From the NCBI RefSeq assembly GCF_056712565.1, contig NZ_CM160072.1: 64,000 nt of DNA. One strand, given 5' to 3'. A program made the translations under genes and the position numbers. Below, in pieces: positions 4,123-42,364 of the stretch. The notes under the pieces are model-generated. The model saw only the letters and a program-made list of their open reading frames with translations. It was not told the origin of the DNA and searched no databases. Position 1 is the first letter of the stretch. Each line of letters opens with the position of its first letter.

Positions 4123-4668
4123 TCACGTCAGTGCTCCGGTTTCATCAGGGTCTGCGCACCGGATGTGGCCGGTCAGGGTCATGGGCTGAGCGGTGAGTGA
4201 TTGCATCATCCAGCAGGCTTTGTGCTCCTCCGGGATGGGATAAGGTGCCGGATAGCCTTTGTCTCCGGCACAGGGTTCGAACCCATGTCGGGGGTAATAG
4301 GTGGCGTGGCCGAGAACAAAAACCGTCTGGCAGCCCATCAACCTCAGGTGCTCGATGCCAGTGCGTATCAACCGTCCTCCCACGCCCATCCCTTGGTATT
4401 CCGGTATGAAAGCCAGGGGAGCGAGGATGTGCATCAACGGTGAATCCATTTCTCCTTTGAAGGTTGCCCGGGTAAATAAAATATGCCCGACGGCTTTGCC
4501 TTCATACCGGGCTAGCAGCGATAACGCGGGGCGCGCGCTTTCATCCTCAAGTAAAGAGGCCACTAAATCGGCTTCTTTGCCGAAGCCAAATGCGCGGGTT
4601 TCGACTTCCCGGATATCACTGGCATCACTTTTATCTGTGATATGAAAAGTGAAGTGGTGTACTGTCAT
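4123..4668 (-). CDS. yjhQ: GNAT acetyltransferase YjhQ (putative TopAI antitoxin)
   Basis: 181-aa ORF with GNAT-like core (QGMGVGGRLIRTGIEHL); immediately downstream of topAI. Confidence 0.8.
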   Translation of the reverse strand: MTVHHFTFHITDKSDASDIREVETRAFGFGKEADLVASLLEDESARPALSLLARYEGKAVGHILFTRATFKGEMDSPLMHILAPLAFIPEYQGMGVGGRLIRTGIEHLRLMGCQTVFVLGHATYYPRHGFEPCAGDKGYPAPYPIPEEHKACWMMQSLTAQPMTLTGHIRCADPDETGALT

Positions 4669-4679
4669 AGAAACTCTCC

Positions 4680-4936
4680 TTAGCGATTATCGAGCTGAGC
4701 GCGAACTTTATTCAGCTCGGTGGTGTTGATTCGATAGGGCTGGCCATTGACGGACTTGATAAGTTTTTGGTTTTGAGTTTTTTGAAGACGGCGAGCGTGC
4801 AGTCGGTCAGCAACAGCCCTTCGCGGCTGTAGCATTCAACGGAAGTGACGCGGCCTGAAGAATCGCGGACGTGCGCAATACGTCTACCTTTAGCGAGAAC
4901 GTGTAAGGTATGTTGTTCCTGACGGGATAAATTCAT
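4680..4936 (-). pseudogene. topAI: topAI (yjhX) topoisomerase I inhibitor toxin gene, frameshifted in an A-run
   Basis: ORF 4712-4936 gives [57 protein letters not shown] then diverges; the -1 frame continues [27 protein letters not shown] to TAA at 4680-4682, reconstituting the 85-aa K-12 protein if one A is added to the A5 run near 4765-4769. Confidence 0.7.
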
Positions 4937-5426
4937 ACTGAAGAACCTATTTAATCATCATGTGCAAAACGTGCAAACACACCGCGGTGTCCGCATTCGA
5001 TTTCGGCGCATTGATAATCAGTCCGGCCTGAAAAGGTCGGGGAACTGATTATCGGATGATTACATTCTCCAGCATCAAAGCCTCGGGTTGAGTTGAAAGG
5101 TATTTACGGAGCGAATATTAACACGTAGTTATAGGAGGGATATGTTTCAGTAGAAAAAGTGTGATGTACTTTGGAAATTGAATGCCAACCCATTTACTGG
5201 AAAAGGCAGATGACACTGACGAATGCATGTTGAAGTACGCCTGAAATGGCCTCATCGGCTTTTCCCTTCGGGAGATTATTCTCCTTTTGTTAAATCCAGA
5301 ACATAAATATGCTCACCCATATTCGATGCTTGAAAAATTGAAGCCAATCCTGATAAGTAATTTTTTTGAAAGGGTATTTTCCGGATTCACACCGGCTTTG
5401 ATGAGTGAAAAACCGTTCTCTTTTAT

Positions 5427-5600
5427 TCAGTCAATCGTGGCGGTAATTGCTTCAATTGCATATCCCTGGCGAGCATAAGCGGGACTGATGGTATAGCCGA
5501 GCCAAAACACATCGCATTGCTGACGTAAATAGATATCACCAATCAAAACCTGCGTCATTTGTTGACAATGGCCAATTGAATATCGCGAGCAAGTGTAAGA
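5427..5600 (-). pseudogene. C-terminal fragment of a GNAT/RimJ-like acetyltransferase (possibly yjhZ-type pseudogene)
   Basis: Minus frame reads ...IGHCQQMTQVLIGDIYLRQQCDVFWLGYTISPAYARQGYAIEAITATID-stop (TGA at 5427-5429); GNAT-like C-terminal motif with no intact N-terminus. Confidence 0.3.
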
Positions 5601-5897
5601 ACTCCCAGCAAGACCCTGTAAATAATTCTGTGTAACTGCCCACGATTAAAGGTGGCCGCTCAGGCGGTCACCGTATTCGATAATAAATGGGTCTGGAAAA
5701 AGTGCAGCATCTGGCAGCGTAATGCAGGTAGCCCAGTTCAACTCTCACTACCAGTATGATCCCAAGTTCGAGCGCGGAATGTATCTGTATGAGCATCGTC
5801 GCTGTTTCAATAACATCATCGACTACTGTAACTCACTTTGCTATCACGGTAAGTTGCAGCCTAAAAGAGGGATGGAAAAAGGACGATTTTCCCCGCA

Positions 5898-6914
5898 ATG
5901 GGATATTTACATATTGATGGTAGAGGCATGAAGCCAAATGGAGGGAGCCGTCATAACCCTCTTGAAGCTGAAACAATAGCAGCATGGCTGGTGGCACATA
6001 AGGATGATATAGAGCGCCATTACGGGGAACCACTGTACAAAGTTGTTGGTGTTGTGACGCCATTTTCGGCGCAGGTTAATGCTATCAAAATGTCATTGCG
6101 TAAGCTGGAAATTAATGGCAAAGACGAGCAGGGTTTACTGACAGTGGGGACTGTGCACTCCTTGCAGGGGGCGGAAAGGGCGATTGTTCTCTTTTCTCCT
6201 GTCTACTCAAAACATGAAGATGGCAGGTTTCTTGATAGCAACAGCACTATCCTCAATGTTGCTGTCTCACGCGCTAAAGATAGTTTTCTGGTATTTGGCG
6301 ATATGGACCTTATCGAGATGCAGCCCGCATTTTCGCCGCGAGGGTTATTGGCAAAATATCTCTTTTCTTCAGATAATAATGCGTTGCAATTTGAGTTTCA
6401 GAAACGACAGGATTTAATTTCCGCACATACACAAATTTCAACGCTGCATGGTGTGGAGCAGCATGATGAATTTTTGAACAAGACTCTTGCCGGAGCTCAA
6501 AAGAAAATAACGATTATTTCCCCTTGGTTATCCTGGCAAAAAGTGGAGCAAACGGGATTTCTGGCATCAATGGCTTTGGCCCGTTCCCGGGGCATTGATA
6601 TTACCGTGGTGACGGATAAAAACTGCAATATAGCGCATGTCGATGATGATAAGCGTCAGGAGAAACAACATCTGCTGAATGATGCTGTTGAAAAGCTCAA
6701 TAAGATGGGTATCGCTACGAAATTGGTTAATCGTGTTCACAGCAAAATTGTGATTGAGGATGAAGAACTGCTGTGTGTCGGATCTTTTAACTGGTTCAGT
6801 GCTACACGGGAAGATAAGTATCAACGATACGATACGTCTTTGGTGTACCGTGGTGAAGGCGTAAAAAATGAAATAAAGGCAATATATGGTAGTCTGGATC
6901 AACGTCAGCTTTAA
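5898..6914 (+). CDS. yjhR: YjhR-like protein: C-terminal SF1 helicase motifs fused to a PLD-like domain; likely remnant of a larger gene
   Basis: 338-aa ORF with helicase C-terminal motifs ([22 protein letters not shown]) followed by a PLD-like region ([24 protein letters not shown]); upstream 5722-5931 frame has further helicase-like sequence in another frame. Confidence 0.6.
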
Positions 6915-36863: not shown

Positions 36864-38144
36864 CTATAAATTGCCGAGGGGGAACAAGGCCGGGAGCTGC
36901 GACAGCAAATACAAAATAAGTCCAATACAACCGCCAACCAGCGTACCGTTGACACGGATAAACTGGAGATCTTTGCCGATATTTAACTCGATTTGCCGCG
37001 ACATATCCCGTGCGTCCCAGCTTTTTACCGTGTCGCTGATATGGCGAGTCAGGAATGCGGAAAACTCAGGCGCAATGCGGTGTGCGGCTTGTTCCAGATG
37101 ACCATTTAACGACGCCCGCAAGGCATCATCGGCAATTAACGTTTCGCCAAACCATTGACCCGCCCGCGCGATACGTTCTTTCACACGAGAATCTTCACTG
37201 TTGATATCCGCATTCAGCCATTCCCGTAAATCCCCCCACAATTCACTGAGATAGCGGTTAAAAGCTTCATCTTCTTTCAGATAGCTTTTTACGGCATCGG
37301 CTCGCGCTGCCATTTCCGGATCGTTTTTCAGCTTGTCGATCAGGGCAAAAGTGGCGCGATCAAACGCATGGCGGATCTGATGCGCACGATCGCGGCTGAT
37401 ATCATCAAGCAAAGAATTCACCGCGTCAGAAACCAACTCCGCGCTATGTTCGCCCAGCCATTCAGTGGGCAAAATTTTGGCTTTCAGTGGATGCTCGCTC
37501 TCCAGCCAGCGAACAATTTGCTGGGCGATAAACTTGCGCGATTTATCGCGCTGGAGAAGGGCGATCAACTGTGCGATCAGCGTATCGAGCAGCACCTGAT
37601 GACGATCGTTTCTGGTCATGCTCTCCAGAATCAGTGCGCTGGTGCCGGAAAGATCGACCTTATCGATCGCCCGGTGGACCGCGCGCTTAAGCAGGCGCTG
37701 AATACGCGCATCATCGGTCAGTTCGAGAAAACCGCTCATGATCTGTAACAGATGCTGACCAACGCGGCGGGCGTTCTCCGGCTGACTAAACCAGTTGCCA
37801 ATCAACAACGCCGGTTCGTGACGTCGAATCAATGCCACCAGCGATTGGGTATCGAGAAATTTTTCCTGCACGAACTGGCCGAGATTTTCGCCAATCCGGT
37901 CTTTATTACGCGGGATAATCGCCGTATGACGAGAAATGATCGGAATCGGCACGCGGCGAAACAGCGCCACCACCGCAAACCAGTCCGCCAGCGCGCCGAC
38001 CATCGCCGCTTCAGCAATCGCCTTCACACCGCTCACCCAAAAATTGGGCGGCAAAAACAGCGTAACGACAAAGGTAGCAGCGGCGATAAGCAGTAAAGAG
38101 AGAGCCAACATTTTGGCGCGTCTGAGTTCAATGAGTTTATTCAT
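36864..38144 (-). CDS. yjiN: Inner-membrane protein YjiN (DUF445)
   Basis: ORF 36864-38180; start set at [16 protein letters not shown] (426 aa). Confidence 0.75.
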
Positions 38145-38328
38145 ATCGTAAGAATAGAGCCTGACGGTAAGAAAACGCAAAAAGCGAGATATCTTCCATA
38201 AAAATGTATCGTTTGCAGAAGAATAAAAATAGCCTGGAAACCGCCTCGGGGAATAGGAAATAGCCAGGTGTGAATGGCTTTGTTAGTCGCTAAAGTTGGG
38301 CCATCTTATCTACAGGTGACGGATCGCC

Positions 38329-39249
38329 ATGACAAACTTTACGACCAGCACGCCGCATGACGCATTATTTAAATCCTTTCTCACACACTCTGACACCGCG
38401 CGGGATTTTATGGAGATCCACTTACCCAAAGATTTACGTGAACTGTGCGATCTCGATAGCTTAAAACTGGAATCCGCCAGCTTTGTCGATGAAAAATTGC
38501 GGGCGCTACATTCCGATATTCTGTGGTCGGTAAAGACCCGTGAAGGCGATGGCTATATTTATGTAGTGATTGAACATCAGAGCCGTGAGGATATTCATAT
38601 GGCCTTTCGTCTGATGCGATATTCCATGGCGGTGATGCAGCGCCATATCGAACATGATAAACGCCGGCAGCTACCACTGGTCATCCCGATGCTGTTTTAT
38701 CACGGTAGCCGTAGCCCTTATCCTTGGTCTTTGTGCTGGCTGGACGAATTTGCCGACCCAACTACCGCACGGAAGCTTTATACCGCCGCGTTCCCGCTGG
38801 TGGATATCACTGTCGTGCCAGACGACGAGATTGTGCAGCATCGCAGAGTCGCCCTGTTGGAGTTGATCCAAAAGCATATTCGCCAGCGCGATCTGATGGG
38901 GCTTATTGACCAACTGGTAGTATTACTGGTTACAGAGTGTGCTAATGACAGCCAGATAACTGCGCTGTTAAATTACATTTTACTGACTGGTGATGAAGCG
39001 CGTTTTAATGAGTTTATCAGTGAAATTACCCGTCGACTGCCACAACAAAGGGAGCGAATAATGACGATTGCAGAGCGAATTCATAATGATGGATATATAA
39101 AAGGGGAACAGCGCATTCTTCGATTGTTTTTGCAGAATGGGGTAGATCCTGAATGGATACAAAAGATTACCGGACTTTCGGCAGAGCAAATACAGGCATT
39201 AGAGCAGCCCTTGCCTGAGCGTGAGCCTTATTCATGGCTCAAGAGCTAA
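38329..39249 (+). CDS. rpnD: Recombination-promoting nuclease RpnD (PD-(D/E)XK, Rpn/YhgA-like); intact here
   Basis: 306-aa uninterrupted ORF with Rpn-family N-terminus ([25 protein letters not shown]). Confidence 0.8.
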
Positions 39250-39267
39250 TCAGAGACGGATGACAAA

Positions 39268-39376
39268 CGCAAAGCTGCCTGATGCGCTACGCTTATCAGA
39301 CCTACATTATCTCTGCAATCTATTGAATTTGCGCGGTTTGTAGGCCGGATAAGGCGTTCACGCCGCATCCGGCATG
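39268..39376. repeat. BIME-like pair of REP elements
   Basis: GCCTGATGCGCTACGCTTATCAGACCTACA and TGTAGGCCGGATAAGGCGTTCACGCCGCATCCGGCA in opposite orientation. Confidence 0.65.
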
Positions 39377-39654
39377 AACGAAGCACACTTTACGTGGCGA
39401 TGATAGTGACCTTCCTGCACCAACCTTGCCGCCGCCATTTATGTGAACGGTACATTAACGCTGCTGGTGGCAGCAAATGCAGACCCGGTGCGTGTTACAG
39501 CAGGTGAGAGATGAACGGTTAAAGGATATTGGGTTATGCAGGGAGGATGTGGTGTAATGGAGAGAGTCCTTCACGAAACGATGGGATTTATATGTCACCT
39601 CGTCAGATAAGGGGTTATTATTGCGAAATCATCGCTTCACGGAAAGACGTCAGA

Positions 39655-41748
39655 ATGAAAGCTACAGAAGCCCGCCTACTCGATTTTTTAAAACGTTCGC
39701 AGCAGTTCGTTATTACCATTTATCAACGGACTTATTCATGGACAGAACAACAATGTCGGCAACTTTGGGACGACATCATTCGTGCCGGAAAGCGTGACGA
39801 TATATCAGCGCATTTTATCGGTTCGGTTGTTTATATTGAGCAGGGGTTGTATCAGGTTTCTGGTATTTCTCCGTTACTGGTCATTGATGGTCAACAAAGG
39901 CTGACGACCGCAATGTTGCTGATTGAGGCTTTATCGCGTCATCTTGGCGAAGACGAAGTTTTTGATGGCTTTTCAGCAATGAAATTGCGTAATTATTATT
40001 TACTCAATCCTTATGAGTCCGGCGAGAAAGGATTTAAATTACTGCTGACCGAGACTGATAAAGACAGTTTGCTGGCGTTAATAAAACAAAGACCAATGCC
40101 AGAAAACTATTCCCATCGAATAATGGAAAACTTTACTTTCTTTGATGAACAAATTACCAAACTCGGTGATGACTTGATCCCCTTATGTCGTGGGTTAGCA
40201 AAGTTATTAATTGTCGATGTGGCGCTTAATCGTGGTCAGGATAATCCGCAACTGATTTTTGAAAGTATGAACTCCACCGGTAAGGCATTAAGTCAGGCCG
40301 ATCTGGTGCGCAATTTTATTCTGATGGGCCTCGAACCAGAGCATCAAACCCGGTTGTATGAAGATCACTGGCGTCCAATGGAAGTCGCGTTTGGTCAGCA
40401 AGGTTACAGCGAATATTTTGACAGTTTTATGCGTCATTATCTGACGGTAAAAACGGGGGAGATCCCTCGGACAGATGAAGTCTATGAGGCATTTAAACTC
40501 CATGCCCGCAGCCAGAGTGTTGCTGAAAAAGGCGTAGATCGGCTGGTTGAAGATATTCACATCTACGCGGAGTATTACTGTGCAATGGCATTGGGAAAAG
40601 AAAGTGACAAATCGCTTGCTACGGCTTTTCAGGATTTGCGCGAGTTAAAGGTCGATGTGGCGTATCCTTTCTTACTGGCGCTTTATCATGACTATAAAAA
40701 TGGCGTTTTGTCTCACGAAGATTTCCTGAGCATAATTCGTTTAATTGAATCTTATGTTTTCCGCCGTGCAGTATGTGCGATTCCGACAAATTCTCTTAAC
40801 AAGACGTTTGCTACTTTTTATAAGGTCATTAATAAAGAAAAATATCTGGAAAGTATTCAGGTACATTTTCTGAATCTGCCTTCATATCGTCGTTTCCCCA
40901 ACGATGATGAATTTAAACGGGAATTAAAAGTTCGTGATCTCTATAATTTCCGTAGTCGCAGCTACTGGTTACGACGACTGGAAAACGATAAACGCAGAGA
41001 GCGCGTGGAAGAGTTTACGATTGAGCATATTATGCCGCAGAACGAAAATTTGTCGGCTAAATGGCGTGAAGAGCTGGGAAGTGACTGGCAACGCATTCAT
41101 AAAGAACTGTTGCATACGTTGGGGAATCTCACATTAACGCGCTATAACTCCCGCTACAGTGACAGACCTTTCGCGGAAAAACGCGATATTGAAGACGGCT
41201 TTAAACATAGCCCGCTCTATTTGAATATCGGTCTTGGACAGTGCGAAAAATGGGATGAAGCAGCCATTCGCGCCCGTGCAGATCGTCTGGCCGATCTCGC
41301 GGTTCAGGTCTGGCAAGCGCCTGCTCTTCCTGAAGAGGTTTTAGCTGTTTATCGGGCGCAGCCGGAGAACAAAACCAGTTACAGCCTGAGTGATTATCCT
41401 TTTCTTGCTGATGGTTCGCATAGCCGGGTGTTATTTGATCATCTTCGCGATGAAGTTATGCGCCTGGACGCAGGGATCACGCAGGAAGTTTTAAAGCTCT
41501 ATATTGCGTTTAAAGCTGAAACGAATTTTGTTGATGTTGTACCGCAAAAAAGCCGACTGCGGTTGTCGCTTAATATGCAGTTTCATGAACTGGTCGATCC
41601 GAAAGGTATTGCCAAAGATGTGACAAATGTTGGGCGATGGGGCAATGGTGATGTGGAAATTGGTTTCAGTGACCTCGCACAACTTCCTTACATTATGGGA
41701 TTAATTCGTCAGGCATTTGAAAAACAGATGGAGAGCGCGTTGGTATAA
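39655..41748 (+). CDS. DUF262/DUF1524 (GmrSD-like) protein, candidate type IV restriction / defence nuclease
   Basis: ORF 39529-41748; start set at MKATEARLLDF (697 aa). N-terminal DUF262 signature (YQRTYSW ... LVIDGQQRLTT) and C-terminal HNH-like DUF1524 signature (EHIMPQN ... LGNLTL..YN). Confidence 0.8.
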   Translation: MKATEARLLDFLKRSQQFVITIYQRTYSWTEQQCRQLWDDIIRAGKRDDISAHFIGSVVYIEQGLYQVSGISPLLVIDGQQRLTTAMLLIEALSRHLGEDEVFDGFSAMKLRNYYLLNPYESGEKGFKLLLTETDKDSLLALIKQRPMPENYSHRIMENFTFFDEQITKLGDDLIPLCRGLAKLLIVDVALNRGQDNPQLIFESMNSTGKALSQADLVRNFILMGLEPEHQTRLYEDHWRPMEVAFGQQGYSEYFDSFMRHYLTVKTGEIPRTDEVYEAFKLHARSQSVAEKGVDRLVEDIHIYAEYYCAMALGKESDKSLATAFQDLRELKVDVAYPFLLALYHDYKNGVLSHEDFLSIIRLIESYVFRRAVCAIPTNSLNKTFATFYKVINKEKYLESIQVHFLNLPSYRRFPNDDEFKRELKVRDLYNFRSRSYWLRRLENDKRRERVEEFTIEHIMPQNENLSAKWREELGSDWQRIHKELLHTLGNLTLTRYNSRYSDRPFAEKRDIEDGFKHSPLYLNIGLGQCEKWDEAAIRARADRLADLAVQVWQAPALPEEVLAVYRAQPENKTSYSLSDYPFLADGSHSRVLFDHLRDEVMRLDAGITQEVLKLYIAFKAETNFVDVVPQKSRLRLSLNMQFHELVDPKGIAKDVTNVGRWGNGDVEIGFSDLAQLPYIMGLIRQAFEKQMESALV

Positions 41749-41794: not shown

Positions 41795-42136
41795 TCAGGC
41801 GACTTTCTGTTTACCCGCAATCACCCCAATAAACTCCTGCACCTGCCTTTGTTTACGCGCCGACAGCTTGCACACCTGGCGAAGCGACTGCATCAGTTCG
41901 CTCTCTTCGGCGGCGGGGGGTTGGGCGGTGAGGACAATACAGCCTTCCATCACTTTGACATCTATCGCCGTGCCAGTGGCAAAACCGGCGGCTTCCAGCC
42001 ACTGACCTTTCAGGGTGATGGCGGGAATACGGCTGTAATCCGGGTAGCGACTCGCATAACTCACGGTTAATTGACGGTTATTTGCCGGGGAGACTTCTGC
42101 TTCGAACGGTTGTGCAATAGAATGCGTGTCAGTCAT
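41795..42136 (-). CDS. symE: SymE, SOS-induced toxin-like protein (113 aa)
   Basis: ORF 41795-42193; start set at [52 protein letters not shown], matching SymE. Confidence 0.85.
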
Positions 42137-42200
42137 GATTACTATTCTCCATAAATAGTGATTGTGATGAGCGGTGCGGGTGTGTTGGCGCACATCCGCA
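42120..42200 (+). ncRNA. symR: Putative SymR antisense sRNA overlapping the symE 5' end (approximate)
   Basis: SymR is known to be encoded antisense to the symE translation start; plus strand here includes GCGGGTGTGTTGGCGCACATCCGC hairpin. Ends not determinable. Confidence 0.35.
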
Positions 42201-42364
42201 TCGCGCTAAATACCTGGATATATCATCAGTAAATACAGGGAAAGTCCAGCTAAAAATAGAATAAAATGGGAAGTTTCTGGAACGATTTAAATATATTTGT
42301 GTGAGTTATGATTGGCGTAAAAATAATAAATAGCGCACCAGAAAGGTGCGCCAGAAAATAATGA

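Follow-up and report, generated by a model that had tools for sequence, protein, structure and literature searches.

The rpnD gene beside the GmrSD cassette of an Escherichia coli restriction island is an ordinary intact allele predicted to encode a nuclease and an internally started antitoxin

Is an intact rpnD gene next to the variable defence cassette of an E. coli restriction island anything out of the ordinary, and could the nuclease that it encodes contribute to exchange of the neighbouring cassette? The questions arise from a 64,000-nucleotide stretch of contig NZ_CM160072.1 (RefSeq assembly GCF_056712565.1), here called the window, in which a sequence-only reading had described an uninterrupted 306-aa open reading frame and named it rpnD. 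The open reading frame was found at exactly the coordinates proposed, 38329 to 39249, running from an ATG start to a TAA stop with no internal stops, and position 38329 is the earliest start codon possible downstream of the preceding stop.

38329..39249, + strand: rpnD coding sequence, long product RpnD_L, intact (open reading frame list, profiles and synteny)

The encoded protein matches the Pfam profile PF04754 (Transposase_31, YhgA-like) with an E-value of 3.9e-86 and 288.3 bits against a cutoff of 21, over profile positions 1 to 202 of 203, and the NCBIfam Rpn family model TIGR01784 with 160.8 bits (cutoff 52.1). The gene sits between yjiN and the hsd/symE restriction region and has 94.6% DNA identity with K-12 rpnD, which identifies it as the rpnD orthologue; the syntenic gene of MG1655 is annotated as the pseudogene rpnD, b4584. 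Protein identity to the K-12 paralogs RpnA, RpnB, RpnC and RpnE is 57, 63, 48, and 57%, respectively, and the match to the RpnA equivalog model NF007361 falls below the cutoff (388.1 bits vs 583), which makes RpnD a paralogue of RpnA and not its orthologue. RefSeq WP_000181195.1, the annotated product in strains 7/2 and HM670, has the same amino-acid sequence as the window protein, and the rpnD DNA of strain 7/2 is one synonymous base apart from that of the window. The two family profiles, the paralog alignment and synteny with b4584 all uphold the earlier naming of the gene as rpnD, encoding a PD-(D/E)XK Rpn nuclease. In PADLOC-DB v2.0.0, a 2023 library apparently without an Rpn model, neither RpnD_L nor the predicted small product RpnD_S (see below) matched a family at E ≤ 0.01.

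The labels attached to these profiles would instead suggest the transposase of a mobile element: the Pfam family is named Transposase_31, and the top NCBIfam match is NF007418, "ISNCY family transposase", with 391.1 bits. This score is, however, below the model cutoff of 583, and a search around rpnD for terminal inverted repeats or target duplications found none, the only repeats there being of 14 to 17 nt, at chance level. The rpnD locus is present in 4,242 of 5,426 complete E. coli genomes as a single copy (median of one place per genome), has the same neighbourhood in each record examined, and is chromosomal at all but 2 of its 4,247 places. Zhong et al. 2023 saw no sign of autonomous transposition and judged a transposase role highly unlikely (PMC10400941). 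We consider it almost certain that rpnD is not a transposase gene.

The nuclease domain and the residues expected to matter for catalysis were located as follows:

38350..38958, + strand: Transposase_31/YhgA-like domain (aa 8-210), with the PD-(D/E)XK core (Pfam match limits)
38359..38361, + strand: D11 codon (GAC), invariant in the alignment with RpnA, RpnB, RpnC and RpnE
38515..38517, + strand: D63 codon (GAT), predicted catalytic Asp of the PD motif, invariant in the paralog alignment
38572..38580, + strand: E82-H83-Q84 codons, EXQ motif equivalent to (D/E)XK, all three invariant
38818..38829, + strand: PDDE motif (aa 164-167: P164, D165, D166, E167), invariant

In the alignment with K-12 RpnA, RpnB, RpnC and RpnE, the positions D11, D63, E82, Q84, R94, and PDDE are all invariant columns. 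Comparison with RpnA to RpnC had been proposed as a check; with RpnE added, it showed that the residues tested by mutation in RpnA are all conserved in RpnD. Purified RpnA (YhgA), the biochemically characterised exemplar of the family, is a Mg-dependent DNA endonuclease that cleaves with little or no sequence specificity. Its D11A mutation abolishes activity, the D63A protein shows no activity either in vivo or in vitro, no phenotype remains with E82A or Q84K, and D165A is hyperactive (PMC5350276). RpnD and RpnA share 57% protein identity together with D11, D63, E82, Q84, R94, and PDDE, but they are paralogues and the C-terminal extension of RpnD is 13 residues longer. Strong purifying selection acts on the nuclease domain: dN/dS is 0.07 to 0.12 over codons 1 to 244 in comparisons with three other alleles, and about 0.5, from few sites, in the C-terminal tail. 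An AlphaFold2 model built from seven sequences has low confidence (mean pLDDT 51.5); the order of its elements, H-E-E-E-H-E over residues 9 to 124, is compatible with a PD-(D/E)XK core.

K-12 rpnD (yjiP/yjiQ, b4584), known in repaired form as the yjiPc allele of Kingston et al. 2015/2017, and the window rpnD are both 921 nt long, are collinear and differ at 50 bases (94.6% identity). They share chromosomal position, catalytic residues, the predicted internal start, and a repeat-less C-terminal form, and are separated at the protein level by 14 amino-acid substitutions and the K-12 stop. Alignment with yjiP/yjiQ revealed no frameshift in the window gene, and K-12 rpnD is not intact; the earlier statement that the K-12 locus is split into yjiP and yjiQ was right in substance. 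The split is caused by an amber codon, TAG, at codon 104, for which the MG1655 coordinate compared is 4569307. A frameshift was considered as the K-12 lesion and rejected, since the alleles stay collinear throughout and a single C-to-T substitution (CAG to TAG) accounts for the stop.

38638..38640, + strand: codon 104, CAG (Gln), the site of the K-12 amber codon (TAG there) (alignment, translation and allele counts)

Over the whole gene, the wild isolate EC0880B differs from MG1655 rpnD solely at nt 310, with C in place of T, so that a single nonsense transition explains why K-12 rpnD is divided into yjiP and yjiQ. The amber codon stands in place of a Gln codon. The supE44 (glnV44) tRNA-Gln reads UAG, and laboratory strains that carry it could make some full-length RpnD with the native Gln.

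How common the two states of codon 104 are was determined with 41-nt allele probes carrying the variable base at their centre and searched by megablast with a 28-nt exact word, so that a match must cover and agree at that base. The TAG probe matched 339 of the 5,426 genomes, and the 25 TAG matches listed include the named K-12 laboratory strains and derivatives MG1655, DH1, J53, MC4100, NEB Turbo, Stbl4, and ER1709. The CAG probe matched at least 3,446 of the 4,242 genomes that bear the locus; the remaining genomes, approximately 450, presumably differ near the probe site. An intact rpnD coding sequence is annotated in 12 of 15 records sampled, the other three being K-12 (amber), O157:H7 (frameshift) and E. 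coli B (IS1 insertion). Most E. coli were already reported to encode a complete YjiP by Kingston et al. 2015 (PMC4498929). Intactness, which had been put forward as noteworthy, is thus the prevailing state, and the window gene, one of five E. coli Rpn genes, is the ordinary, normal form of E. coli rpnD. Intact alleles do vary: those of S65EC (WP_000181180.1) and ST2747 (WP_001577654.1) lie at the same locus and have 90 to 93% protein identity to the window RpnD, but differ in the last 10 residues and carry 12 and 8 additional Gly/Arg/Glu/Lys-rich repeat residues, respectively, after G255, where the window has none.

The end of the gene is where a second product is expected. A predicted internal in-frame start, as expected of an Rpn family gene, is found at the ATG of 39061 to 39063 (M245), 6 nt downstream of a Shine-Dalgarno-like motif:

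39049..39054, + strand: Shine-Dalgarno-like AGGGAG, 6 nt 5' of the internal ATG (sequence reading)
39061..39249, + strand: RpnD_S, 62 aa from M245, in frame, predicted antitoxin (invariant M245-T246 and alignment with PDB 7TH0)

M245 and T246 are invariant across all paralogs, as is E242, encoded inside the AGGGAG region, and RpnA and RpnD have the internal MTIAER start in common. In the alignment with the solved RpnA_S structure (PDB 7TH0), the first residue of its chain falls on M245 of RpnD. The motif, the invariant M245 and the 7TH0 alignment together indicate that the window encodes a 62-aa RpnD_S, read in frame with RpnD_L, which matches the small antitoxin product of rpnD that Zhong et al. 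2023 describe (PMC10400941). In RpnA, the ribosome-binding site and start mutations K240R, E241D, and M244L abolish RpnA_S (PMC10400941), and start peaks in ribosome profiling, as well as tagged small proteins, have been reported for all five K-12 rpn genes (bioRxiv 10.1101/520783; PMC10400941). Antitoxin action was demonstrated for RpnA_S, RpnB_S, RpnC_S, and RpnP2_S (PMC10400941).

A promoter scan of positions 38100 to 39700, run together with a terminator scan, returned three promoter-like sites, vs 2.5 expected from shuffled sequence. One of them, at 38945 to 38974 upstream of the internal start, was considered as the internal promoter that has been described and was rejected because the number of sites is about that expected by chance.

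Shortly after the internal start, alleles of rpnD diverge in length through a tract of four-residue repeats rich in Gly, Arg, Glu, and Lys:

39094..39100, + strand: insertion point of the four-residue repeat tract, after G255; the window has the shortest, repeat-less form (allele alignment)

Relative to the window, the tract adds 12 aa in S65EC, 8 aa in ST2747, and 4 aa in O157, and nothing in K-12. The alleles part 11 residues after M245, within the 8 to 20 residues past the internal Met at which repeats are expected, and the insertion point in the window agrees with the repeat position described by Zhong et al. 2023 (PMC10400941). In the genome search with rpnD, homology stops at query nt 766 in many genomes.

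The same short region is also where two of the broken alleles are interrupted. In O157:H7 strain 2-6-2 (locus 6735-6784), a 25-nt tandem duplication, GACGATTGCAGAGCGAATTCATAAT, begins two bases into the internal start codon and frameshifts rpnD; RpnD_L is thereby disrupted near codon 254, and the second copy re-forms an ATG-led RpnD_S frame of 66 aa. In E. coli B-LamR (locus 1060-1130), IS1 lies directly after codon G255, the same point as the natural repeats, and both products are truncated. The repeat variation, the O157 duplication, and the E. coli B IS1 insertion all fall inside approximately 50 nt.

Independent inactivation of the long product by the K-12 amber codon, the O157:H7 25-nt duplication, and the E. 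coli B IS1 insertion could mean that RpnD_L is effectively silent or decaying, and that the small C-terminal protein alone matters. The RpnD_S frame persists in K-12 and O157, and in K-12 the RpnS transcripts and proteins exceed those of RpnL (PMC10400941). Against this stand the strong purifying selection on the nuclease domain (dN/dS 0.07-0.12), the retention of all catalytic residues, and the intact coding sequence in 12 of the 15 records sampled; moreover, the IS1 insertion of E. coli B destroys RpnD_S too. A long product that no longer matters is in our judgment very unlikely.

The gene order in K-12, S65EC, ST2747, and O157:H7 is yjiN - mdtM - rpnD - yjiR - yjiS - variable cassette - symE - hsd. 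The window lacks several of these neighbours. By BLAST, it is collinear with the GmrSD-type loci of ST2747 and O157, with approximately 96% identity through GmrSD and symE, except for three deletions that flank rpnD and were mapped by BLAST against K-12, S65EC, ST2747 and O157 and by inspection of the junction sequences:

38160..38185, junction near 38167: deletion 1, approximately 1.55 kb, loss of mdtM and ytiE between yjiN and rpnD (BLAST, junction sequence)
39391/39395, junction: deletion 2, 421 bp, loss of part of yjiR (BLAST, junction sequence)
39465-39471, junction: deletion 3, 1,262 bp, loss of the remaining yjiR and most of yjiS (BLAST, junction sequence)
39395..39552: remnants of yjiR (77 nt, 39395-39471) and yjiS (88 nt, 39465-39552) (BLAST)
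39277-39305 and 39340-39379: two REP-like palindromic elements just 3' of the rpnD stop (sequence reading)

The sequence equivalent to deletion 1 is at 4302-5850 of the O157:H7 strain 2-6-2 locus. A site-specific signature was looked for at the three junctions and rejected, microhomology there being limited to 0 to 5 nt. When probes crossing each junction were searched, 676 of the 5,426 genomes matched at the mdtM deletion and 421 at the yjiR-yjiS junctions, which indicates that these are old events inherited by a lineage. Over 39101-39391, similarity to other strains drops to 82%, and homology continues through the two palindromic elements, which resemble the E. coli REP consensus, up to 39391, where the first yjiR deletion junction follows.

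The deletions bear on where the cassette begins. The claim that rpnD borders the McrBC/GmrSD position holds in the window, where rpnD adjoins the GmrSD cassette because yjiR and yjiS have been deleted; it fails in the four records outside the window's clade, in which those two genes lie between. In K-12, S65EC, ST2747, and O157, the cassette boundary is beyond yjiS, approximately 1.9 kb from rpnD, and in the strains compared this is also the side of yjiS on which McrBC and GmrSD alternate. K-12 has mdtM, yjiR, and yjiS, followed by yjiT-yjiV-mcrCB, whereas the window lineage is without those neighbours and has GmrSD instead. Replacement of McrBC by a GmrSD homologue in some strains is noted in a 2025 EcoSal review, in which rpn is listed as one of the ICR toxin-antitoxin systems (PMC12707154).

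Several features of the neighbouring genes were observed in passing. The yjiR and yjiS genes are published "framework" genes of the restriction island, and in strain 7/2 RefSeq places a 26-aa "hypothetical protein" on the yjiS remnant. The GmrSD gene of the window (DUF262 + DUF1524; 39655-41748, + strand) is one uninterrupted 697-aa frame, and its best PADLOC match is Orf5 PDLC02693 (E=1.8e-221). Its DNA is 100% identical in strain 7/2, yet RefSeq annotates it there as two pieces, a partial DUF262 protein and a 387-aa GmrSD protein; the ST2747 gene is annotated as two pieces too, without an internal stop, and the O157:H7 gene has a real 1-nt deletion at the equivalent of window position 40455. 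The SymR antitoxin RNA (Rfam RF01809, 95.8 bits) is at 42131-42207 on the + strand, opposite the 5' end of symE (41795-42193, − strand), as in K-12, and SymR/symE is a second toxin-antitoxin pair of the island, beside rpnD.

Could the RpnD nuclease, sitting at the edge of the island, cut locally, drive the exchange of McrBC and GmrSD, and perhaps have made the flanking deletions? The deletions on both sides of the window rpnD (mdtM on one, yjiR-yjiS on the other) would be in keeping with this, as would the behaviour of the repaired K-12 RpnD, whose overexpression raises RecA-independent recombination approximately 5-fold, with shorter replacement tracts, toxicity, and SOS induction (Kingston et al., PMC4498929, PMC5350276). 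Moreover, among 217 RecA-independent recombinants there were 3 in which both crossovers mapped to the border intervals of the island, approximately 100-fold over random expectation (PMC4498929). However, exchange at the restriction island is the very hypothesis that brought Kingston et al. 2015 to this gene; they tested it with the repaired allele, chosen for its place at the island border, and found that its action was not targeted to the island (PMC4498929), and deletion of rpnA-D leaves basal recombination unchanged, while RpnA cleaves with little or no specificity (PMC5350276). The cassette boundary approximately 1.9 kb away, beyond yjiS, in K-12, S65EC, ST2747, and O157 also argues against it, as does the presence of the window's GmrSD cassette (approximately 96% identical) in ST2747 and in O157, where rpnD is frameshifted. 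The three junctions, with their 0 to 5 nt of microhomology and their occurrence in 421 to 676 genomes, are old lineage events. That RpnD drives the exchange is improbable, and the significance that the sequence-only reading saw for an active Rpn nuclease in local cassette exchange is not supported, given the untargeted action reported in 2015 and the lack of effect of the rpnA-D deletion. The position of rpnD beside restriction genes is best explained as the usual clustering of defence genes, rather than by a role in the swap of the neighbouring cassette.

What rpnD does in such a cluster can be proposed from its relatives. In Zhong et al. 2023, the Rpn genes are reinterpreted as toxin-antitoxin systems that serve defence and lie in clusters with other such genes; phage defence was demonstrated only for the plasmid-borne RpnP2 (PMC10400941). 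RpnP2, from ECOR13, is the sole Rpn with proven phage protection; it belongs to the same family and, according to Zhong et al. 2023, is likewise a gene-within-gene toxin-antitoxin. It is highly probable that the window rpnD is an ordinary functional allele, which would encode the RpnD_L nuclease and the internally started RpnD_S antitoxin and would most likely serve in phage defence. By homology to RpnA, RpnB, RpnC, and RpnP2, from which the nuclease biochemistry, the antitoxin action of RpnD_S, and the phage defence role are all taken, the 306-aa RpnD_L would be a PD-(D/E)XK DNA endonuclease with little sequence specificity. When overproduced it would, as shown for the repaired K-12 RpnD, be toxic, induce SOS, and increase RecA-independent recombination. 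The 62-aa RpnD_S would be translated in the same frame from the internal start (AGGGAG, 6 nt, ATG at 39061) and, by analogy with RpnA, RpnB, RpnC and RpnP2, would bind and block RpnD_L via a shared helical oligomerisation region. One gene would thereby supply a toxin-antitoxin pair, with phage defence as its most likely purpose.

The independent loss of RpnD_L in K-12, O157:H7, and E. coli B, with two of these lesions and the repeat variation lying near the RpnD_S start, might reflect a toxin-antitoxin that is costly but active. The fuller version of this idea, in which the intact RpnD_L/RpnD_S pair is an active phage-defence system of the island whose own activity might add local instability, flanking deletions included, is speculative and unlikely to be right.

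As a discovery the finding has little weight: the gene is ordinary and correctly named, and the gene itself, the fact that most E. coli carry it unbroken, the nonsense codon of K-12, the restriction-island position, the exchange hypothesis, and the toxin-antitoxin organisation are all published (PMC4498929, PMC5350276, PMC10400941, PMC12707154). K-12 cannot make RpnD_L, and work in K-12 is therefore silent on the native long product. Strains like the one from which the window derives would be the right background in which to test phage defence by the chromosomal RpnD.
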